Shown: in pieces, positions 21,690 to 64,000 of the stretch
Numbering within the stretch: the stretch's first letter is position 1
Layout of the letters: each line of letters opens with the position of its first letter
NCBI GenBank assembly: GCA_964016885.1
Contig: OZ024746.1
Location: 57,536,001-57,600,000 of the forward strand
Direction of reading: 5' to 3'
Length of the DNA: 64,000 bases
DNA from: Eledone cirrhosa
Taxonomy: Eukaryota
Program-made: the position numbers and the translations under genes
Notes under the pieces: model-generated
Seen by the model: only the letters and a program-made list of their open reading frames with translations
Told to the model about the DNA's origin: nothing
Databases searched by the model: none

Positions 21690-24210
21690 AAAAGAGAAAA
21701 TACAGGTAAACATTAAGAGAAGGATTGTATCCAGGTATTTACGACCGTTTCATTGGTAAGTGCAAACTTATATTGCTATACTGCAAATAGCAGCCATTCA
21801 ATTATAATTGTTGTTCACAGACCACATTTTCAAAATAGTGAGTAAGTTACTCTTGAAATAGTTCTTAATATATAGAGAAAAACATTTTTTTGGAATTGTA
21901 TTTAGTAGTATAGAGAGAGAGGAATTAGAGGTGAGGGGACAAGCGGAATAGTATAGAGAGAGAGGAAGGGGGTGGAATAAGGAAGTAGAGTGACAACTGA
22001 GATGGAGGGCGGGGTAGAGGTGGAAGGATTCCTTGATCAGTTTTGATATGTAGACTTCATATCGTGGAATATAGTGAGTTAAAGAGAATTAAATTGATCA
22101 TAGTGGGAGGGATGGATAGAGAGAGAGAGGGGGGGGGGAGATATAAAGAGATAAATAAATATATAAAAAATAAAGATAAATATAATAATGACAAAATAAA
22201 AGCAAAGGAGGCGGGAGAAAGAAGAAAAGAAAAGATAGCCAAAAAGGGGAGGGAAGGAAGGAAGAAAACGAAGAAATAGAAGTGGAATGAAGGAGAAGGG
22301 AGGGATATAGGTAGTGGTTTTTATGGGGAATTAAAAGGGTTTAGATACACCAAGCGGGTATAAAGTCTAAGTATATTCAGTTTGTCAGTTGGTAGTAAGA
22401 GGTTAAGGGTTCGATTTGCACTTGTAGTGTGAAAACTTCTCTTTGAGTCTATGGTTACAATAAATTGATCTTTCGATTTTATTGTTTAGTAACTTATTCT
22501 TCGAACTCAAAATGTGGAACAGCTCAAGGTCACATAATCGACAGTTTCTCATACCACTTCGATATGGGGGCGCGTTCGATAATGTTTGCCACTTGCGGGT
22601 GTATTGATGGTTACTTTCCCTCAGTTGCCAGGTCTTGTTTGCAAGGGTAGGTACATAACAATGCTGGGAATGTTTCATTGCGTAACGGTGTGTATACCAA
22701 CGGGCTTTAAATGTATTCCCAGTCCCTCCGATGTGATACCATTTCTGGTTGTCTGATTCCACTGTACATTGGTAAACCAGGTTAGACGGCATACATTCAT
22801 TATTTAATGGACAGGTTTCAGGTAGGTGGCAGTTACAATTCTTGTCATGGGCAACTTTGGCATTATTGGTGGGCTGCGGTGCCTGTACAAGTGTGTTACC
22901 TTTTGTTTGCCTATTAGAGGGTGGTTGTGTATTAGATATTCTGTTGTGTTCAATGGTGATTGTATTGTTATTGTTGTAAATTTGTGTTCTGATGTTGTTA
23001 TGTATCTTTTTAGCGTTAAGCATCTTAATGTGTGCCTCTATATTTGGTGACGTGGAGTAAGATAGTCTAATAGATTTAGTGTTAAGGATTTTGCTGTATC
23101 TATGTGAATCAGGAAAGTGCTTATTTATTATTCTAAAGAAGGTAGAGGGTAGGTTAGTACTAATAGAGGTGTTAAATATGGGGTTATACCAAATATATTT
23201 TCTACTGCGTGACGTGTTTGATTTCGATGTTGTATTTCTATTTACCGTATACATTGTAGCTCTATGCGTAAGTGCGTGTGTGCGTGTGTTTCTGGAGCTT
23301 GTGTTATGCGTGTTCGTTAGCGCTTTGCGGAGGCTTTCATCTATATATTCTACTCTATCTAAGTGGCCTGCCTTGTCTAATGCGGTATTGTAGTATTCTG
23401 CATGTTCCTCGAAGATTTGTCGGTTTTACGAGAGGCGGGAGATCCTAAGGGATATGCTGCGTGGAATGGATTTAATAATGGATAGTGAGTGGTTTGAGTT
23501 ACAGTTGATGTATGCTAAGTTTTCATTAATCTTGTGAAAAGGTCTTATAAATCCCGTATTTAGGTTAAGCATCGCGTCTAGAAAGCTAACTGTTTTAGTG
23601 CTATACTCATACGTTTTGCTAAGGCCTAGTTTCCCGAGAGTCTTTCTAATATTCTTACGGAGTCTTTCTATGCTCTGGTTATTTAGGTTCTTAACTAGGA
23701 GAAGGGCGTCGTCTCTGTAGATTCCAACGTGAAGGTCGCTAAACTCACTCTGTAAACTATGGGCTATGTAAATACCTACTAAATCTGTGACTTGAGCCGA
23801 GTCGATAGACCCCAACGTGAAGTCAAAGTGATTTAATCTATCCTTACGCTCCCAATAGGCGTTTTCAAATTTAATTATTCTTTTCCTAGTAGCTAATATG
23901 ATTTTCATCCCGTCGTCTGTTAGGTCAGAATTGGCTTTGGTGAATGCTAAGGCTTTATCCAAGGTTTTGGGGGATATAGAGGAGTGATAGTCGTTAATGT
24001 CAAATTGTATAAATTTAGATACTTTTTTGTTAGCTATATTGTTAAATCACTTAATTGTTTCGGTAGCGTTACCCCATAGTTTAATCACAAGTTTATTCTT
24101 CATTTGTGCTATCACTCTGTCTAATATATGTTTACTAATTTTCCCGATGTCCGATTTGGACGGGCATATAAGACTAATTGTGGGGTTATAATCAAAGTTT
24201 ACCTGTATTT
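21690..24210 (-). mobile_element. Penelope-like element (RT + CxCx5C linker + GIY-YIG), 5'-truncated
   Basis: ORFs 23426..23962 and 22403..23254, purine-rich (+) 3' region, and a possible decayed HHR (GAAACGGTCGTA on minus near 21740-21751) next to a TA run. Confidence 0.92.
22403..24200 (-). pseudogene. PLE polyprotein remnant: RT (YRDD) and C-terminal GIY-YIG endonuclease
   Basis: 'LGSIDSA..LVGIY..GIYRDDALLL', 'VSFLD', 'SNH', 'WYNP', 'CNCHLPETCPLNNEC', 'LVYQC..WYHIGGT..FKARWYTH', 'CRLCDLE..LLNN'. Interrupted by stops. Confidence 0.92.
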
Positions 24211-30663: not shown

Positions 30664-32382
30664 TTGAACTGTTCGGGAGCGTTGACGGCACGGATCGGGC
30701 ATGGACTTCAGTGCATACCTCGACGGATTACCTCTGCTCTCGATGACCGCAGCACAGTGTTGCGAAAAGCCAATAACAGCCGGTGAAATACAGGAAGCGA
30801 TGGCTAACTGCACAAGGGGTAAATCGACAGGTTTGGATGGTCTGCCCTACGAGCTTTATGCATTTATGCCAGACTTGTTCGGTGACCTCTTGGCAGACGT
30901 CTACTGCAACTGGCAGCAGAACGGGAGCATTCCCAGTTTTGTGAGCCGCGGAGCAGTGGCGCTGCTGAGAAAAGACCCTAACAAGGGAGATGTTATCGAT
31001 AATTTCAGGCCCATAACCCTGCTAAACGCAGATTTGAAGAGTTTAGCCAAGGAGTTAACAACAAGGTGTTGTTCCAGCCCAACTCTCACCAAAATGGAGC
31101 GCCTCCTCTTCCGCTTTTTGTGGAAGGGACGCGCTCCCATGGTCAGCCGATCCATCTGCTGTCAACACCCGTTGCGTGGAGGACTGGGGATGCCATGGCT
31201 GATGATGCGCAAACATGCGCTGAGGCTGCGACATCTCTGGTGCTTCCTTGATGGTGAACAGGTGTTGTTGCCGTTCGCCAGGCACGTTTTCCCACAGCTC
31301 GTCTCCTTGACGGAGCTGCAGTCCTGGGTCAGATAAAGACCGAGGGATAGCGCTTGGAAACTGGAATGTCTCCAGGCGCTCACTGCCCTCTCCCAGCTGG
31401 GCACCAGTATCGGTGGAAAATGCACCTCGGCGTTCTATACAGGACTAGTAGATGGGAAGGGCGACGACATTCTCGGAGAGATCCTGGGCGTCAAAGAAGA
31501 TCAGCTGTTTGCTCTCTGCCGCAGAACTTTCAGCCCAGGGCCTATGGATAACTTCCAAACATCTCTGGCCTGGCAGTGTTACCGGGGTGCGCTGCCGGTT
31601 CGAGATAAGCTCTACACGGAAGTGCCGTCAGCCGAGCCTGTCCGAGATCTGCGCAGAGCGACGAAACCGTCGTGCACGCAATCATTCAGTGCCTAAGCAT
31701 TGCTGACTTGTGGAGCTATGTCGAACAGTTGCTGTTGCGTGTGGGACTGATCCGGTTGTCGACTGAGTCCATTGTGCAGATGGTCTCGCCGTCTTCCTTC
31801 GAGGAGGAAGGGCAGGCGGATTTCATCTGCCTGGTGGCCATGGCGAAATAGATTGAGTGGTGGACAAGGTTAAAAGGGTTCAAGACAGACACTTTCCTCT
31901 TCGGCGAATCCCTAATTAACTTTTTCAAGTTTCACTTGAAGAGGAAAATCAGGGTCGAGAGGCAAGTGCTGCTTTCTAGCAAGTTTGTTGAAAGGTGGGT
32001 GAATGTAGCGAGAATGGTCCGCCTGTATACGTCTGTAATTTGAGAGATGGAAAAATTGAGAGAGGGCGCTTGCCCTAGTGGTCAGGGTGGCCGTGGTCTT
32101 TCGTTTGGTTTTCGCCACGAGTAACCCTCGGAGGTTTCCCCCCTATTGGGGAATTTTTCATTGTTTTAATTTTCATTTTTATTGTTTATATATATATATA
32201 TGTTTCTATGTCCTTTTTTTTTCTTTTCTTATATAAATAATAAAAATATTTACACGCATAAAACCCACATCGTAGCGTCCTGTACCGTCCTGTGCCGTCT
32301 GTAATGTTTTTCTTGATGTCAGCCCTTGTGGCCAATAAAGAAATCATTATTATTATTGTTATTATTAGTAGTATTATTTATT
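30664..32382 (+). mobile_element. Tx1/L1-clade LINE, 5'-truncated and internally deleted, with intact 3' end
   Basis: ORF 30701..31336: 'PITAGEI..GKSTGLDGLPYELY..LLRK..NFRPITLLNADLK'. Downstream 'LAWQCYRGALPVRDKL' and CPRS..ETVVHA zinc-knuckle remnant. AATAAA at 32334, (ATT)n tail. Confidence 0.9.
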
Positions 32383-38179: not shown

Positions 38180-38224
<45 letters not shown>

Positions 38225-38670
38225 CAAATAACGAAACGAAATTAAATTTCGTTTCGTTTGTAACTCACTTTTGTATGACTGAAATACTAGTATGTATATG
38301 ACTACACACACGTATACATATGTAGGTGTAACAAGTCTTTCACTGGTTGCTTTACTGTGAGCAACCCAGCTATTCTGTATGTAAACACACAGACAATGTA
38401 TACGTGTGTGTATTCATATACACACTAGTATTTCAGTATGCATATGTAGATGTACATTTTTAACTTAATTGTTTAAGCGTCAGTCATACAAAAGTGAGTT
38501 ACAAACGATACGAAATTTAATTTCGTTTCGTTATTTGTTTTTATCGTCTCCGCTGAACCGGTGCGTACTCACACTCTATGCAAATTAGTCTGCCCACTAC
38601 TAATTTTCATAGAAAAAGCATATAACGATATGTGCTTTTACAATTCTCCAGAAGGGCCGGTAGATAGGTA

Positions 38671-38715
38671 AATATTGCTGATGAGTTGTAACAACAACGA
38701 AACTAGTTCAATATT
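38671..38715 (+). ncRNA. Minimal type I hammerhead ribozyme
   Basis: AATATTG-CTGATGA-GTTG TAACAA CAAC-GAAACTAGTT-CAATATT. 7-bp stem I, palindromic ACTAGT stem III, predicted cut after 38708. Confidence 0.93.
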
Positions 38716-39137
38716 CCTTGTCTGGCTTTCTGTAGAATAGAGGGAAGGTGTTCCCCCGAAAACCAGTATGACTCTAAAAACCGGTTTGTCTGTGTGTATA
38801 CATACAGAATAGCTGGGTTGCTCACAGTAAAGCAACCAGTGAAAGACTTGTTACACCTACATATGTATACGTGTGTGTATTCATATACACACTAGTATTT
38901 CAGTATGCATATGTAGATGTACATTTTTAACTTAATTGTTTAAGCGTCAGTCATACAAAAGTGAGTTACAAACGAAACGAAATTTAATTTCGTTTCGTTA
39001 TTTGTTTTTATCGTCTCCGCTGAACCGGTGCGTACTCACACTCTATGCAAATTAGTCTGCCCACTACTAATTTTCATAGAAAAAGCATATAACGATATGT
39101 GCTTTTACAATTCTCCAGAAGGGCCGGTAGATAGGTA

Positions 39138-39182
39138 AATATTGCTGATGAGTTGTAACAACAACGAAACTAGTTCAATATT
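39138..39182 (+). ncRNA. Minimal type I hammerhead ribozyme (second tandem copy)
   Basis: Identical to 38671-38715, 467 bp downstream. Predicted cut after 39175. Confidence 0.93.
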
Positions 39183-39398
39183 CCTTGTCTGGCTTTCTGT
39201 AGAATAGAGGGAAGGTGTTCCCCCGAAAATCAGTATGACTCTAAAAACCGGTTTGTCTGTGTGTTTACATACAGAATAACTGGGTTGCTCACAGTAAAGC
39301 AACCAGTGAAAGACTTGTTACACCTACATATGTATACGTGTGTGTATTCATATACACACTAGTATTTCAGTATGCATATGTAGATGTACATTTTTAAC

Positions 39399-39471
<73 letters not shown>

Positions 39472-43658: not shown

Positions 43659-43662
<4 letters not shown>
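42497..43662. repeat. Two tandem non-coding units (555 and 605 bp) bounded by (TA)n
   Basis: ATACAAATATAAATTA.CGAGAATCG at 42497 and 43052, with a third start at 43657. Unit 2 has ~50 extra bp at 43310-43360. Confidence 0.92.
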
Positions 43663-43709
<47 letters not shown>

Positions 43710-43710
43710 G

Positions 43711-43743
<33 letters not shown>

Positions 43744-43955
43744 GTACATACATGTATGTACACGTACATACATATATGTATACAGACATACAGTAGTATG
43801 TAATATATATACATACATGCACATATATATATATATGTACGTATGGATTCACCGAACATTTATTATAATGCTCGGAGTGTTTGTAAACAAACATCCCGTA
43901 TTAAGCCGTAGTGTCCAGCAACCATCGTTGCTCGTTTGTTCAACACTGACAAAGG

Positions 43956-43998
43956 ACGTTGTACTAGTTTCAAGCTTATTAGCTATCATCAGCAACGT
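43956..43998 (-). ncRNA. Minimal type I hammerhead ribozyme (inverted copy)
   Basis: Minus strand: ACGTTG-CTGATGA-TAGC TAATAA GCTT-GAAACTAGTA-CAACGT. Confidence 0.88.
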
Positions 43999-44407
43999 AA
44001 TACCTTCCTGCCAGATTGTTGAACGTATATACTTACCTTATGCATATTAACGGCTGAGTAGCCCAATTTGCATATCGAGTGGGTTAATCGGCCGGGTGTA
44101 CCGAATACGATAAACAGGAAAAATGAAACGAAATTCGGTGAATCCATACGTACATATATATATGTGTGCATGTATGTATATATATATATACATACTACTG
44201 TATGTACGTGTACATGTATGTACGTGTATATACTTATATTAAGTAACAGCCGTACTAAGAGTGGGAAATGAAATTTCGTTTCATTTTTCCTGTTTATCGT
44301 ATTCGGTGCAGCCGGCCGATTAACCCACTCGATATGCAAATTGGGCTACTCAGCCGTTAATATGCATAAGGTAAGTATATACGTTCAACAATCTGCAGGA
44401 AGGTTAT

Positions 44408-44450
44408 ACGTTGCTGATGATAGCCAATAAGCTTGAAACTAGTACAACGT
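44408..44450 (+). ncRNA. Minimal type I hammerhead ribozyme
   Basis: ACGTTG-CTGATGA-TAGC CAATAA GCTT-GAAACTAGTA-CAACGT. 6-bp stem I, GUA triplet, U-U at the base of stem II. Confidence 0.9.
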
Positions 44451-44738
44451 TCCTTTGTCAGTGTTGAACAAACGAGCAACGATGGTTGCTGGACACTACG
44501 GCTTAATATGGGATGTTTGTTTACAAACACTCCGAGCATTATAATAAATGTTCGGTGAATCCATACGTACATATATATATGTGTGCATGTATGTATAATA
44601 TATATACATACTACTGTATGTCTGTATACATATATGTAAGTACGTGTACATACACGTATGTACGTGTACATACTTATATTTAAGTAACAGCGTACTAAGA
44701 GTGGGAAATGAAATTTCGTTTCATTTTTCCTGTTTATG

Positions 44739-44775
<37 letters not shown>

Positions 44776-44911
44776 CGTTATTCCGGTTGAATCGGAGGTA
44801 ACCACAGTAAGTAAGGTACTCAATACATAGCAGAGTATAACAGTTTTAATATAGATGAGATTTCTACAGGACTAGAACTGTTTCATTCATTTGAAATCAT
44901 CAGGAATCCTG

Positions 44912-56429: not shown

Positions 56430-59400
56430 TGTCGTTGTCTATGTTCCTGGGTGGATTTGTAGCTGATGTTCTTATCGTCCATTTTTTGTGTTGTAATTAT
56501 TATTGTCTGATTTAGAAATATGGTTGTTGTAGTAATTGTTATGAGTAAGGGGCTCGATGTTCTTATTTTCCTTATAGGTTTTGTGGTTGTTGACGTAGCT
56601 GATATGTGTAACATGCTCGATGTGATTGTCTCCTTGACAATTTTGTGGTTGTTGTAGCTGATATGTGTAACGGGCTCGATGTTATCATGTCCTTGACAGG
56701 TGTGTGGTTGTGTCGTAGCTGATATATATAACGCGCTCGATGTGATTGTGTCCTTCACAGTTTTGTGGTAGTATTTGTAACTGATATGTGTAACGGGCTC
56801 GATGTGTTTCTGCCATTGTCAGTTTTGTGGTTATTGGGGCAGATAGATAATATGTGTAACGATATCGATGTGATTGTGCCCTTGACAGTTTTCTGGTTGT
56901 TGCCGTAGCTGATATGTGTAACGGGCTCGGTGTGATTGTGTACTTGACAGTTTTGTGGTTGTCGACGTAGCTGATATATGTAACGGGCTCGATGTGATTT
57001 TGTAGTTGACAGTTTTGTGGTTGTTGTCGTAGCAGATATGTGTAACGGGCTCGATGTTATCGTGTCCTTGACAATTTCGTGGTTGTGTTCGTAGCTGATA
57101 TGTGTAACGGGCTCGATGTGATTGTGTCCTTGACAGTTTTGTAGTTGTTCTCCTAGCAGATATATGTAACGGATTCGTTGTGACTGTGTCCTTGACAGTT
57201 TTGTGGTTGTTGTCGTAGCTGATATGCGTAAAGGGCTCGATGTGATCGTTTCCTTGACAGTTTTGTGGTTGTTTGTGTAGTTGTTATGTGTAACGGGCTC
57301 GATGTTATTGTGTCCTTGTCAATTTTGTGGTTGTTGTCGTAGCTGATATGTGTAACGGGCTCGATATGATTGTGTCCTTGTCAGTTTTGTGGTTGTTCTC
57401 TTAGCTGATATGTGTAACGGGCTCGATGTGATTCTATCCTTGTCGTTTCATGGTTATTCTCATAGCTAATATATCTAACGGGCTCGATGTGATTCTGTCC
57501 TTGTCAGTTTTGTGGTTATTGTTGTAGCTGATATATGTAACGGGCACGACGTGATTGTGTCCTTGTCAGTTTTGTGGTTGTTGGTGTAGTTGCTATGTGT
57601 AACGGCCTCGATATGATTGTGATCTTCACTGATTTGCGGTTGTTTTCCTTAGCTGATATATGTAACGGGCTCGATGTGATTCTGTCCTTGACAGGTGTGT
57701 GGTTGTTGTCGTAGCTGATATGTTTAACGGGCTCGAAGTGATTCTGTCCTTGACAGTTTTGTGGTTGTTGTCGTAGCTGATACGTGTAACGGCCTCGATA
57801 TGATTGTGTCCTTCACAGTTTTTTAGTAGTTTTCGTAGATGATATGTGTAACGGGCTCGAGGTGATTCTGTCCTTGTCAGTTTTGTGTTATTGTTGTATC
57901 TGATATGTGTAACGGGCTCGATGTGTTTGTGTCCTTGTCAGTTTTGTGGTTGTTGTTGTAGCTTGTATGTGTAACGGGCTCGATGTGATTGTGTCCTTGA
58001 CAGTTTTATGGTTGTTGTCGTAACTGATATGTGTAACGGGCTCGATGTTATCATGTCCTTGACAGTTTTGTGGTTGTTGTTGTAGTTGATATATATAACG
58101 GGCTCGATGTGATTGTGTCCTTGACTGTTTTGTGGTAGTATTCGTAAATGATATGTGTAACGGGCTCGATGTGTTTCTGTCCCTGTCAGTTTTGTGGTTA
58201 TTTTTGTAGATAGATAATATGTGTAACGATATCGATGTGATTGTGCCCTTGACAGTTTTGTGGTTGTCGACGTAGCTGATATGTGTAACGGGCTCGATGT
58301 GATTTTGTAGTTGACAGTTTTGTGGTTGTTGTCGTAGATGATATGTTTAACGGGCTCGAGGTGATTCTGTCCTTGTCAGTTTTGTGTTATTGTTGTATCT
58401 GATATGTGTAACGGTCTCGATGTGATTCTGTCCTTGTCAGTTTTGTGTTATTGTTGTAGCTGATATGTGTAACGGGCTCGATGTTATTGTGTCCTTGTCA
58501 GTTTTGTCGTTGTTATTGTAGCTTGTATGTGTAACGGGCTCGATGTGAATTTGTCCTTGACAGTCTTGTGGTTGTTATCATAGCTGATATGTGTAACGGG
58601 CTCGATCTTGTTGTGTCCTTGACAGTTTTGTGGTTGTTGTCGTAGCTGATATGTGTAACGGGCTAGATTTGATTGTGTCCTTGTCAGTTTTGTCTTTGTT
58701 ATCATAGCTGACATGTGTAACGGGCTAGATATGTTTGTGTCACTGACACTTTTGTGGCTGTTGTTGTATCTGATATGTGTAACGGGCTCCATGTGATTAT
58801 GTCCTTGTCAGTGTTGTGGTTGTTGACGTAGCTGACATGTGTAACGGCCTCGATGTGATTGTGTCCTAGACAGTTTTGTGGTTATTGTCGTAGCTGATAT
58901 GTGTAACGGGCTAGATGTGATTGTGTTCTTGACAGTTTTGTGGTTGTTGTCGTAGCTGATATGTGTAACGGGCTCGATGTGATTGTGTCCTTGTCAGTTT
59001 CGTGGTTGTTCTCGTAGCTAATATATCTCACGGGTTCGATGTGATTCTGTCCTTGTCAGTTTTGTGGTTATTGTTGTAGCTGATACATGTAACGGGCTCG
59101 ATGTGATTGTGTGCTTGACAATTTTGTGGTTGTTCTCGTAGTTGATATGTGTAACGGGAACGATGTGATTGTGTCCTTGTCAGTTTTGTGGTTGTTGGTG
59201 TAGTTGCTATGTGTAACGGCCTCGATGTGATTGTGATCTTCATTGTTTTTCGGTTGTTTTCCTTAGCTGATATATGTAACGGGTTCGATGTGATTGTGTC
59301 CTTGACAGTATTGTGGTTGTTGTCGTAACTGATATGTGTAACGGGCTCGATGTTATCATGTCCTTGACAGTTTTGTGGTTATTGTTGTAGCTGATATATA

Positions 59401-62400
59401 TAACGGGCTCGATGTGATTGTGTCCATGACAGTTTTGTGGTTGTCGACGTAGCTTATATGTGTAACGGGCTCGATGTGATTTTGTAGTTGACAGTTCAGT
59501 TTTGTGGTTGTTGTCGTAGCAGATATGTGTAACGGGCTCGATAGTATCGTCTCCTTGACAGTTTTTTGGTTGTTATCGTAGCTGATACGTGTAAAGTGTT
59601 CGATGTTATCGTGTCTTTGACAGTTTTGTGGTTGTTGTCGTAGCTGATATGTGTAACGGGCTCGATGTTATCGTGTCCTTGACAGTTTTGTGGTTATTGT
59701 CGTAGCAGATATGTTTAACGGGCTCGATGTTATCGTGTACTTGATAGTTTTTTGGTTGATGTCGTAACTGATATGTGTAACGGGCTTCGGGTTTCGATTG
59801 TGTCCTGAACAGTTTTGTGGTTGTTTCGTAGCTGATATGTGTAACGAGCTCGATGTGATTGTGTCCTTGACAGTCTCGTGGTTGTTTTCGTAACTGATAT
59901 GTGTAACAGGCTCGATGTGATTGTGTCCTTGACAGTTTTGTAGTTGTTGTCGTAGCTGATATATGTAACGGATTCGCTGTGATTGTGTACTTGACAATTT
60001 TGTGGTTTTTGTCGTAGCTGATATATGTAATGGGCTAGATGTGATTGTCTCCTTGTCAGTTTTGTCTTTGTTATCATAGCTGACATGTGTAACGGGCTAG
60101 ATATGTTTGTGTCACTGACACTTTTGTGGCTGTTGTTGTATCTGATATGTGTAACGGGCTCCATGTGATTATGTCCTTGTCAGTGTTGTGGTTGTTGACG
60201 TAGCTGACATGTGTAACGGGCTCGATGTGATTGTGTCCTAGACAGTTTTGTGGTTATTGTCGTAGCTGATATGTGTAACGGGCTAGATGTGATTGTGTTC
60301 TTGACAGTTTTGTGGGTGTTGTCGTAGCTGATATGTGTAACGGGCTCGATGTGATTGTGTCCTTGTTAGTTTCGTGGTTGTTCTCCTAGCTAATATATCT
60401 CACGGGTTCGACGTGATTCTATCCTTGTCAGTTTTGTGGTTATTGTTGTAGCTGATATATGTAACGGGCTCGATGTGATTGTGTGCTTGACAATTTTGTG
60501 GTTGTTCTCGTAGCTGATATATGTAACGGGCACGATGTGATTGTGTCCTTGTCAGTTTTGTGGTTGTTGGTGTAGTTGCTATGTGTAACGGCCTCGATAT
60601 GATTGTGATCTTCATTGTTTTTCGGTTGTTTTCCTTAGCTGATATATGTAACGGGTTCGATGTGATCGTGTCCTTGACAGTATTGTGGTTGTTGTCGAAA
60701 CTGATATGTGTAACGGGCTCGATGTTATCATGTCCTTGACAGTTTTGTGGTTGTTGTTGTAGCTGATATATATAACGGGCTCGATGTGATTGTGTCCTTG
60801 ACAGTTTTGTGGTTGTCGACGTAGCTTATATGTGTAACGGGCTCGATGTGATTTTGTAGTTGACAGTTCAGTTTTGTGGTTGTTGTCGTAGCAGATATGT
60901 GTAACGGGCTCGATAGTATCGTCTTCTTGACAGTTTTTTGGTTGTTATCGTAGCTGATACGTGTAAAGTGTTCGATGTTATCGTGTCTTTGACAGTTTTG
61001 TGGTTGTTGTCGTAGCTGATATGTGTAACGGACTCGATGTGATTGTGTTCTTCACAGTTTTGTGGTTGTTGTCCTAGCAGATATGTGTAACGGGCTCGAT
61101 GTTATCGTGTCCTTGACTGTTTTGTGGTTGTTGTCGTAGCTGATACGTGTAATGGGCTCGATGTTATCGTGTCTTTGACAGTTTTGTGGTTGTAGTCGTA
61201 GCTGATATGTGTAACGGACTCGATGTGATTGTGTCCTTGACAGTTTTGTGGTTGTTGTTGTAGCAGATATGTGTAACGGGCTCGATGTTATCGTGTCCTT
61301 GACTGTTTTGTGGTTATTGTCGTAGCAGATATGTTTAACGGGCTCGATGTTATCGTGTACTTGATAGTTTTTTGGTTGATGTCGTAACTGATATGTGTAA
61401 CGGGCTTCGGGTTTCGATTGTGTCCTGAACAGTTTAGTGGTTGTTTCGTAGCAGATATGTGTAACGAGCTCGATGTGATTGTGTCCTTGACAGTCTCGTG
61501 GTTGTTTTCGGAGCTGATATGTGTAACGGGCTCGATGTGATTGTGTCCTTGACAGTTTTGTAGTTGTTGTCGTAGCTGATATATGTAACGGATTCGCTGT
61601 GATTGTGTACTTGACAATTTTGTGGTTGTTGTCGTAGCTGATATATGTAATGGGCTAGATGTGATTGTGTCCTTAACAGTTTTGTGGTTGTTGTCGTCGC
61701 TGATATGTGTAACGGGCTCGATGTGATCGTGTCCTTGACAGTTGTGTGGTTGTTGCCGTAGCTGATATGTGTAAAGGGCTTGATGTGATCGTTTCCTTGA
61801 CAGTTTTGTGATTGTTGGTGTAGTTGTTATATGTAACGCGCTGGATGTTATTGTGTCCTTGTCAGTTTTGTGGTTCTGGTTGTCGTTGTTATGTGTGACG
61901 GGTTCGATGTGATTGTGTCCTTGTCAGTTTTGTGGTTGTTGGTGTAGTGGATATGCGTAACAGACTCAATGTGATTGTTTCCTTGTCATTTTTGTGGTTG
62001 TTGTCGTAGTTGATATGTGTAACGGGCTCGATCTGATTCTGTCCTTGACAGTTTTATGGTTGTTGCCGTAGTGGATATGCGTAACAGGCTCAATGTGATT
62101 GTGTCCTTGTCATTTTTGTGGTTGTTGTCGTAGCTGATATGTGTAACGGGCTCGATGTGCTTGTGTCATTGAGAGTTTTGTGGTTGTTGGTGGAGTTGTT
62201 ATGTGTAACGGGCTCGATAGGATTGTGTCCTTGATGGTTTTGTGGTTGCTGTTGTAGTTGTTATGTTTGACGGCCTCGATTTGTTTGTGTCCTTGACAGT
62301 TTTGTGGTTGTTTTCGTAGCTGATATGTGTAACGGGCTCGATGTGATTGTGTCCTTGACAGTTTTGTGATTGTTTTCGTAGATGATATGTGTAACGAACT

Positions 62401-64000
62401 CGATCTAATTCTGCCCTTGTCAGCTTTCTGTTATTGTTGTAAATGATATGTGTAATGGGCTCGATGTGAGTGTGTCCTTGTCAGTTGTGTGGTTGTTGTC
62501 GTAGCTGATATGCGTAACGGGCTCGATGTGATTGTGTCCTTGTCAGTTTTGTGGTTGTTGTCGTAGCTGATATGTGTAACCAGCTCGATGTGATTGTGTC
62601 CTTGACAGTTTTGTGGTTGTTGCCGTAGATGATATGTGTAACGGACCCTATGTGATTGTGTCCTTGTCAGTTTTATGGTTATTGTCGTAGCTGATGTGTA
62701 ACCGGCTCGATGAGATTGTGTCCTTGTCAGTTTTGTCTTTGTTATCGTAGCTGATATGTATAACAGGCTCGATGTGATTGTGTCCTTGTCAGTTTTGTGG
62801 TTGTTGTCGTATCTGATATGTGTAACGTGTCGATGTGATTCTGTCCTTGACAGTTTTGTGGTTGTTATCGTAGCTGATATGTGTAACGGGCTCGATGTGC
62901 TTGTGTCCTTGTCAGTTTTGTGGTTATTGTCGTAGCTGATATGTGTAACAGGCTCGATGTATTGTGTCCTTGTCAATTTTGTGGTTGTTGTCGTATCTGA
63001 TATGTGTAACGTGTCGATGTGATTCTGTCCTTGACAGTTTTGTGGTTGTTATCGTAGCTGATATGTGTAACGGGCTCGATGTGCTTGTGTCCTTGTCAGT
63101 TTTGTGGTTGTTCTCTTAGCTGATGTGTGAAAAGGGCTCGATGTGATTGTGTCCTTGTCAGTTTCGTGGTTGTTCTCGTAGCTGATATGTGTAGCGGGCT
63201 CGATATGATTGTGTCATTCACAGTTTTTTAGTTGTTTTCGTAGATGATATGTGTAACGGGCTCGAGGTGATTCTGTCCTTGTCAGTTTTGTGTTATTGTT
63301 GTATCTGATATGTGTAACGGGCTCGATGTGATTGTGTCCTTGTCAGTTTTGTGGTTGTTGTTGTAGCTTGTATGTGTAACGGGCTCGATGTGATTGTGTC
63401 CTTGACAGTTTTGTTGTTGTTGTCGTAGCTGTCATGTGTAACGGGCTCGATGTGATTGTGTCCTTGACAGTTTTGTGGTTGTTGTCGTAACTGATATGTG
63501 TAACGGGCTCGATGTTATCATGTCCTTGACAGTTTTGTGGTTGTTGTTGTAGCTGATATATATAACCGGCTCGATGTTATTGTGTCCTTGACAGTTTTGT
63601 GGTAGTATTCGTAACTGATATGTGTAACGGGATCGATGTGTTTCTGTCCCTGTCAGTTTTGTGGTTATTTTTGTATATAGATAATATGTGTAACGATATC
63701 GATGTGATTGTGCCCTTTACAGTTTTGTGGTTGTCGACGTAGCTGATATGTGTAACGCGCTCGGTGTGATTTTGTAGTTGACAGTTTTGTGGTTGTTGTC
63801 GTAGATGATATGTGTAACGGGCTCGAGGTGATTCTGTCCTTGTCAGTTTTGTGTTATTGTTGTATCTGATATGTGTAACGGTCTCGATGTGATTCTGTCC
63901 TTGTCAGTTTTGTGTTATTGTTGTAGCTGATATGTGTAACGAGCTCGATGTTATTGTGTCCTTGTCAGTTTTGTCGTTGTTATTGTAGCTTGTATGTGTA
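56430..64000. repeat. 62-bp satellite array (~120 units, runs off the window) with ~1.37-kb higher-order repeat
   Basis: Consensus GTGTCCTTGACAGTTTTGTGGTTGTTGTCGTAGCTGATATGTGTAACGGGCTCGATGTGATT. Near-identical variant blocks recur 1372 bp apart (58792/60164, 59243/60615). Confidence 0.97.

Follow-up and report, generated by a model that had tools for sequence, protein, structure and literature searches.

A hammerhead-bearing non-LTR retrozyme of Eledone cirrhosa that appears to work like a non-autonomous PLE

The element described here lies at positions 43736..44737 of the window, i.e., of the whole 64,000-nt stretch of Eledone cirrhosa DNA that was analysed (contig OZ024746.1, positions 57,536,001 to 57,600,000, forward strand). 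Judged from its sequence, it is a genuine element and represents one insertion of a non-coding unit of approximately 420 nt with a type I hammerhead motif. The insertion has a left arm of 400 nt (44135 to 43736, minus strand) and a right arm of 604 nt (44134 to 44737, plus strand). The first-pass annotation had placed it at these coordinates, between (TA)n flanks and with an inverted copy followed by direct units, and all of this was confirmed. The following features were recognised, together with a sister insertion in the same window:

38220..39404, plus strand: sister insertion of family A, with a 467-nt unit; the short inverted arm has the long end and the right arm the short end
43662..43735: (TA)n target, left flank
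43736..44135, minus strand: left arm, 5'-truncated and directed outward, with a short-class 3' end that lies about 10 nt before the usual site 2
43956..43998, minus strand: second hammerhead motif, in the left arm, with a 4-bp stem II (AGCT/AGCT) and the core at 43992 (minus)
44063..44074, minus strand: octamer-type block of the left arm, the same block as at 44333..44344
44134..44135: head-to-head (5'-5') junction with a 2-nt TT overlap
44134..44737, plus strand: right arm, a partial unit (44134-44297) followed by a full 440-nt unit (44298-44737), with a long-class 3' end in which TTTAT runs into (AT)n
44259..44330, plus strand: predicted helix of GAGTGGG (44259-44265) with CCCACTC (44324-44330) across the unit boundary, with a compensatory change from A-U to G-C in family B
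44333..44344, plus strand: octamer-type block TATGCAAATTGG, matching the -78 block of host U6, U6atac and MRP genes and also forming the 5' arm of a predicted hairpin
44376..44383, plus strand: TATA-like box TATATACG, 43 nt after the octamer block, with a predicted +1 at 44406 (putative start)
44408..44450, plus strand: type I hammerhead motif of the right arm, with stem I ACGTTG/CAACGT, core CTGATGA (44414-44420), U·U followed by stem II, GAAA, and the palindrome ACTAGT as stem III
44497..44695, plus strand: predicted long-range helix of TACGGCT (44497-44503) with AGC(C)GTA (44689-44695), enclosing a TA-rich palindromic hairpin
44674..44737, plus strand: tail, with a small hairpin holding site 2 (TTTA, about 44682), the tail hairpin (44705-44727) with a T5 run, and site 1 (TTTAT) at 44737
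44738..44775: (TA)n target, right flank

The unit length of about 417 nt proposed earlier had to be revised. The family B consensus, built from 11 units, is 420 nt long, a 20-nt duplication brings the full unit of this copy to 440 nt, and 417 nt is the spacing across a deleted partial unit. GC content in the kilobases around the element was 0.32–0.34, and the open frames were of low complexity only (130 and 162 codons). A different short repeat directly adjoins the element (window 44778-44895), likewise in (TA)n; it begins CGTTATTCC(G/A)GGTTGAATCGGAGGTAACC and is present too at L138, L148, and L202. Window 44239-44560 is also covered by a 533-nt contig that comes from a sequencing run recorded under another organism; 13 letters differ, and the depth is low. 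Elsewhere in the window, a 62-bp tandem array of at least 120 copies with a strong G/T strand skew occupies 56521-64000, and a 216-codon frame at 30686-31336 (plus strand) presumably resembles the start of a non-LTR retrotransposon RT.

Similarity to the insertion at 38220..39404 extends beyond the hammerhead: in the tail plus the part upstream, 119 of 168 columns were identical (score 17.5, the best of 500 shuffles reaching -15.5), which is significant and bears out the sister relationship suggested at first pass. A tail hairpin is present in both elements, in differing pairing registers. Among the ordered blocks that had been listed as shared, AATTTCGTTTC, TTTATCGT, TATGCAAATT, and the hammerhead are homologous, but CGGTGC and GGTTGCT are out of register between families A and B, are not retained in other subfamilies, and are chance matches. 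The clade comprises at least seven subfamilies; A, A1, A2 (466–469 nt), B (420 nt), B1, C (464–541 nt), D (approximately 430 nt), and F were seen. DNA searches of the genome returned 2,149 candidates for family B, 1,363 for family A, and 4,040 for the older family F, with 40 of each scored. Exact hammerhead patterns gave 9,422 and 13,512 matches (overlapping sets) in the 3.0-Gb genome, and one 20-nt promoter-block pattern gave 31,506; the reversed-pattern controls gave none in either case. The units are short, at 420–500 nt, low in GC, and non-coding, each carries a type I hammerhead motif, and they occur as dimers to multimers, with arrays of up to 31 units in one arm.

Insertions consist of two 5'-truncated arms that meet head to head and that each finish, at the 3' end, in (TA)n; the points of 5' truncation vary. 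Target duplications of approximately 8–16 nt are visible where the flanks are not pure TA (L276, L051/L039, L064). There are two fixed 3' ends: site 1 follows the tail hairpin (TTTAT), and site 2 lies in a small AU-rich hairpin 51–69 nt earlier. In a set of 56 non-redundant two-armed insertions (the ends of L031 being assigned by hand), 44 combined a long with a short end, 3 had two short ends, none had two long ends, and 9 had another end. The long/short pairing was highly significant in the 47 classable insertions (p = 2.5e-10). A tail of 51–69 nt stands at one end only in 44 of the 56. The same pairing was seen by eye in four two-armed PLE insertions of the host genome (L139, L144, L145, L148). 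PLEs are described as having partial tandems, an inverted truncated copy, and a 30–40-bp tail at one end (PMC8557442, in its accessible text); partial tandems and an inverted 5'-truncated arm are likewise present in the retrozyme insertions. In an Anolis PLE, reverse transcription is reported to start at two internal sites bounding the tail, with both target strands extended (PMC11167929, accessible text). We are highly confident that the element is mobilised by a PLE, with both strands of a staggered cut serving as primers and each strand using a different one of two internal RNA sites.

Alleles private to an insertion were used to compare the arms, after three segments belonging to unrelated neighbouring insertions were dropped. 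Such an allele was common to both arms in 15 of 36 insertions vs. 4 of 326 mismatched arm pairs; in the other 21 insertions none was common, and in family B alone one was shared in 1 of 7. At L179, all 19 segments were identical at the scored positions. Opposite arms in family B differed by 2.85% vs. 2.53% between separate insertions, figures obtained before the three unrelated segments were dropped. It is very probable that both arms were copied from one RNA or one source, and arm-to-arm gene conversion may be a source of the alleles common to both. At L005, L013, and L051, alleles alternate every second unit (unit lengths 467/480 at L051), which suggests dimeric templates or later higher-order duplication.

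A search for the mobilising partner started from 10,597 GIY-YIG candidates genome-wide. Three long ORFs that were scanned match RVT_1, two of them also GIY-YIG; most PLE ORFs inspected have a cysteine linker of the Neptune/Nematis type, and the loci sit in (TA)n. No autonomous PLE sharing terminal sequence with the retrozyme was found in the 46 loci examined out of these candidates; they represent at least four families with minimal hammerheads and tails of their own, and none share the retrozyme ends. Around 15 divergent ACTAGT motifs, there was neither a PLE ORF within 3 kb nor a terminus match. One preprint makes the case that retrozymes of animals derive from PLEs as non-autonomous elements (10.64898/2026.07.22.740005), and its accessible text reports a matching PLE terminus for 24 of 57 Xenopus retrozyme families, in contrast to none among our 46 loci. 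The PLEs of the host genome use the palindromes ACCGGT and AGTACT. Minimal hammerhead-like motifs with ACCGGT were noticed at PLE 3' ends (L133, L134, L138-L139, L145-L146, L148, L092 and kin); their cores are altered, with TTGAAAA or TTGATAA replacing CTGATGA and with GCAA in one family. The window itself holds two adjoining open frames (22403-24046, minus strand; 206 and 340 codons) that resemble a decayed PLE: they contain motifs like those of an RT as well as a Cys-rich linker, their end is GIY-YIG-like, and they gave no Pfam match at E 0.001.

The right-arm hammerhead has GAAACTAGT at 44435, 3' of the core CTGATGA (44414), and from the hammerhead consensus, cleavage is predicted after A44444. 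Stem I is predicted to extend over 44383-44469. Numbering of positions follows the usual hammerhead convention. Rfam Hammerhead_HH9 (RF02275) matched both motifs of the insertion (29.1 and 21.1 bits) and family A (38.6 bits), all below the gathering score of 52. Isolated hammerheads folded no better than shuffles (z of 0.10, -0.86, and -0.51). Relative to the sister insertion, stem I was said to change from AATATTG/CAATATT to ACGTTG/CAACGT and stem II from GTTG/CAAC to AGC/GCT; these changes are as described, but CAACGT and AGC/GCT are variants private to the copy at 43736..44737, the family B consensus having stem I ACGTTG/CAGCGT and stem II AGCT/AGCT. Stem III consists of one real pair closing a palindrome, ACTAGT or, in family F, ACATGT, so the hexamer stays palindromic. 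The U·U at the base of stem II had been considered as a possible lesion abolishing cleavage in all copies. It proved to be the commonest state, occurring in 83 of the first 100 listed of 13,512 non-G10.1 motifs beside C·A, A·A, and G-C, and an axolotl hammerhead with the same U·U is reported to cleave (PMC7229834, accessible text). According to the same source, axolotl ribozymes with a one-pair stem III cleave poorly alone and well as dimers; as a point against, only one of nine Xenopus retrozyme dimers cleaved in vitro (10.64898/2026.07.22.740005, accessible text). We regard self-cleavage, mainly through pairing of the ACTAGT palindrome between two units, as likely for the predicted ribozyme. 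Solitary ACTAGT hammerhead-like motifs with unrelated flanks, perhaps older elements, occur at L253, L254, L260, L261, and L265.

Folded as circles, consensus units were more stable than 30 shuffles each for families A, A2, and B (z of -9.8, -11.4, and -9.0, respectively) and less markedly for D (-2.9), values inflated by the TA-rich palindrome. Families A and B are predicted to fold into matching sets of helices. From these folds, 46 pairs were drawn by hand onto 14 natural copies, and 17 of them change on both sides. Only 1 of 500 shuffles reached as high, a figure that is no probability, because the 14 sequences are related and the structure was derived from them; independent events are also few. 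The covarying helices are stems I, II, and III, the hairpin after the ribozyme, the helix across the unit boundary, and the long-range helix. The latter has one C missing in the copy at 43736..44737, and its family A counterpart is TATGACT/AGTCATA. The earlier proposal of a real family of several subfamilies with compensatory change is thus upheld. Rfam miRNA matches over the TA-rich hairpin were rejected as low-complexity and below gathering scores.

It had also been supposed that the conserved blocks outside the hammerhead might be promoter or RT-recognition elements. This idea gained support for part of them: TATGCAAATT matches the block upstream of host U6, U6atac, and MRP genes, and the hairpin plus TTTAT marks the long 3' end; the two chance blocks drop out. 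In the host, TATG(C/G)(A/T)AAT(T/G)AG at -77 to -79 and a TATA at -30 characterise the best-scoring U6 genes, which lie at three unrelated loci, as well as U6atac and the only RNase MRP gene. The retrozyme block, TATGCAAAT(T/G)AG followed by the TATA-like box, matches this arrangement with a spacing 3–6 nt closer (43–44 nt from octamer to TATA in the retrozyme vs. 47–49 nt in the host genes). The block lies 43–44 nt before the TATA-like box in all nine retrozyme sequences scored, and a purine follows 30 nt later, at the start of stem I. A start at TATA+30, as predicted, would fall 47 nt ahead of the predicted cleavage site in B1, C, D, and F, 39 nt ahead of it in B, and 58 nt ahead of it in A. 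With a matrix built from the five host sites, eight of the nine scored 18.6–18.9 bits (0 of 300 shuffles) and family B 14.6 bits (2 of 300 shuffles), against a background of two sites of at least 14 bits in 54 kb. Family B combines this weakest block with an 8-nt deletion after the TATA, and family F carries the other host variant, TATGCAAATGAG. The block was absent upstream of U1 (0/8) and U2 (0/5), and a promoter of the U1/U2 type was rejected on this ground. Fifteen further U6 and eight further U6atac matches, with the same or lower Rfam scores, lack the block and are probably retrocopies or disrupted copies. Host small-RNA promoters split cleanly into two classes, U6, U6atac, and MRP with the octamer-type block at -78, and U1 and U2 with TCA(G/A)T near -57, a TATA-like box near -30 being common to the two classes (L189-L191, L217, L222 vs. 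L203-L205, L223-L230, L246-L247).

Both the octamer and the TATA lie within predicted RNA helices. None of the 12 pairs of the octamer hairpin changes on both sides and mismatches are tolerated, which points to a constraint on sequence. Mutant octamers have nevertheless spread, one triple change being found at five loci and two other haplotypes at two loci each. Weighing these data, we lean towards a working octamer-plus-TATA promoter. Pol III terminates at T runs. The first run of four or more T after the predicted +1 is the T5 in the family B tail, 9 nt before the long end, a shorter run than those at which host U6 genes end, and T5 runs in the tail could halt Pol III short of a complete unit. 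The internal T5 run of family A units (positions 379-384) has been interrupted on separate occasions in A2 and, by T380C, in the youngest lineage with long arrays; such interruptions would help Pol III to read through. T-run avoidance gave too weak a signal to serve as evidence of Pol III.

The octamer of family A bears an excess of A-to-G changes. A39G was counted in 114 units, and the first 100 of these on the list fall at 16 places, with both arms affected at 8; A34G was counted in 87 units, falling at 14 places among the matches listed. As controls, T41C was counted in 4 units, T35C in 3, and A39C/T in 4. At ten loci chosen for A>G in the octamer, the changes span both arms where both are covered, on several backgrounds, and the states can be uniform over 6–25 units of both arms. 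Further, unselected A>G changes occur at these loci (7 of the 12 differences in one L282 unit), and A39G+A40G stands on two backgrounds (L282, L283). At L282, units within one arm can differ in state. The same test in the B/B1/D group gave no excess, with 76 matches each for A39G and T41C, 18 of the controls lying in one duplicated cluster; multi-change matches in the B group were 7 of 76 for A>G vs. 1 of 76 for T>C. Among the alleles private to an insertion and common to both arms, 13 were A>G and 10 T>C. ADAR prefers double-stranded RNA. The clustered A>G in young family A copies fits adenosine deamination of a double-stranded template, and its uniformity over many units fits a monomeric circle. 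The lack of an excess in B/B1/D means that the editing reading rests on sister family A, and the spread of the triple haplotype and the two others makes descent from secondary source copies possible. On the pattern of substitutions, we find ADAR-type editing of family A templates fairly plausible.

Taken together, the element is a genuine non-LTR retrozyme that, by its sequence, works like a non-autonomous PLE. It agrees with such elements in the sequence features that were tested, save for its score in Rfam, the spacing within the promoter, and a terminus in common with a PLE, for which the 46 loci examined gave no match. We hold with good confidence that this is a high-copy, non-coding, hammerhead-bearing retrozyme that combines a host-type promoter, self-cleavage as a dimer, a circularised monomer, and PLE reverse transcription into (TA)n. 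Transcription would likely start from a promoter borrowed from host U6-type genes; the dimeric RNA would likely cleave itself to a monomer of about 420 nt, which would then be circularised; and a PLE would likely reverse-transcribe this RNA into (TA)n. That the tandem arrays arise from a circular template is a step we accept with moderate confidence.

This step has its own competitor, in which the element and its mobilisation by a PLE are the same but the template is a linear multimer, produced by host read-through or from long master arrays, the octamer is kept for an RNA hairpin, and cleavage and circles are dispensable. Insertion of the Anolis PLE in vitro indeed used uncleaved RNA, cleavage being dispensable (PMC11167929, accessible text), and a linear template would also agree with the octamer-mutant haplotypes at several loci, the octamer-to-TATA spacing unlike that of host genes, the position of the block in a hairpin arm, the variation of A>G state within one arm at L282, and the dimeric alternation at L005, L013, and L051. 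A hairpin function sits poorly with the drift seen in the arm opposite the octamer, which itself stays constant (two of the pairs are mismatched in 9 and 6 of the 14 sequences, respectively), and with the other host variant, TATGCAAATGAG, in family F; moreover, A>G states uniform over 6–25 units of both arms would not arise from a linear RNA whose units were edited one by one. We consider the linear template unlikely. Another origin, DNA-level duplication of a satellite or foldback repeat with a vestigial hammerhead, could cite the arrays of up to 31 units per arm and a hammerhead below the Rfam gathering score, but it is strongly disfavoured by the pairing of long and short ends and is at odds with dispersed copies in unrelated flanks, fixed 3' ends, variable 5' truncation, target duplications, and covariation across the whole unit; we give it hardly any credence.

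The A>G marks, in turn, could be ordinary DNA mutations or polymerase errors that became markers of sub-lineages. Haplotypes recurring at several loci leave few independent events, the B/B1/D group has no excess at the same site, and A>G and T>C are close among the shared private alleles. Against this stand the scarcity of other change types at the same block (only 3–4 units each), the recurrence of A39G+A40G on two backgrounds, the share of A>G (7 of 12) among the differences in one L282 unit, and the excess of multi-change A>G matches in the B group, and we judge such an origin rather doubtful. At the opposite extreme, the RNA circles might be A-to-I edited even inside the promoter block, persist or replicate in a viroid-like manner, and return to the germline when a PLE reverse-transcribes them in rolling-circle fashion, starting at two sites of a single molecule; the identical triple-A>G haplotype (five loci, up to 25 units, both arms) would be their genomic record. 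RNA-to-RNA replication claimed for a plant retrozyme provides a precedent (PMC9695139), and we regard this extension as improbable.

The retrozyme proposed here belongs to a kind already known. Animal non-LTR retrozymes (PMC7229834; 10.64898/2026.07.22.740005) are alike in having a type I hammerhead in every one of their non-coding units, which are a few hundred nt long and arranged in tandem, in numbering thousands of copies, and in sharing the genome with PLEs; the accessible text of these papers proposes PLE mobilisation through circles and calls the mechanism unresolved. Axolotl HHR_Amex1 has a one-pair stem III with a palindromic loop and HHR_Amex2 a U·U at the base of stem II (PMC7229834, accessible text); both weak features, separate in axolotl, are combined here in one ribozyme. 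The putative promoter, the insertion geometry, and the possible editing marks are described here and do not figure in the accessible text of the published accounts of animal retrozymes. Endonuclease-bearing PLEs (Neptune/Nematis type; Poseidon PAc of Anolis) share 5' truncation, partial tandems, an inverted truncated copy, a tail at one end, and (TA)n targets (PMC8557442, accessible text), and the two internal RT start sites of the Anolis PLE are comparable to our two 3' ends (PMC11167929). They differ from the retrozyme, which has no ORF, a tail of 51–69 instead of 30–40 nt, and a full-length stem I instead of a minimal hammerhead; furthermore, the Anolis PLE is reported to show no start-site difference between strands in vitro (PMC11167929, accessible text), whereas insertions here pair a long with a short end. 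Chlamys non-autonomous elements such as MRC1 are, like our element, non-coding PLE passengers with multicopy head-to-tail insertions, but their 3' sequence is as a rule that of an autonomous family, and canonical hammerheads are described as missing from Chlamys (PMC8557442, accessible text); here, no shared 3' end was found. Newt satellite 2 and a schistosome hammerhead satellite have internal promoters of their own, of the snRNA-type Pol II and the Pol III kind, respectively (as cited in the accessible text of PMC2220036); our block differs in matching host Pol III-type genes (U6, U6atac, MRP), not U1/U2, and in including a TATA-like box. A literature search, with most subscription journals outside it, did not find in print a host U6-type block, strict long/short pairing in a passenger, or A>G marks, and these are what is new here.

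The clade amounts to tens of thousands of insertions, some of them very young, which makes three steps of the proposed cycle testable. It offers a named promoter with a predicted start, a one-long-one-short rule that constrains how a PLE primes on the two target strands, and RNA-level marks that can distinguish circular templates from linear ones. Should the editing reading be true, edited RNA would have been written into the germline genome.
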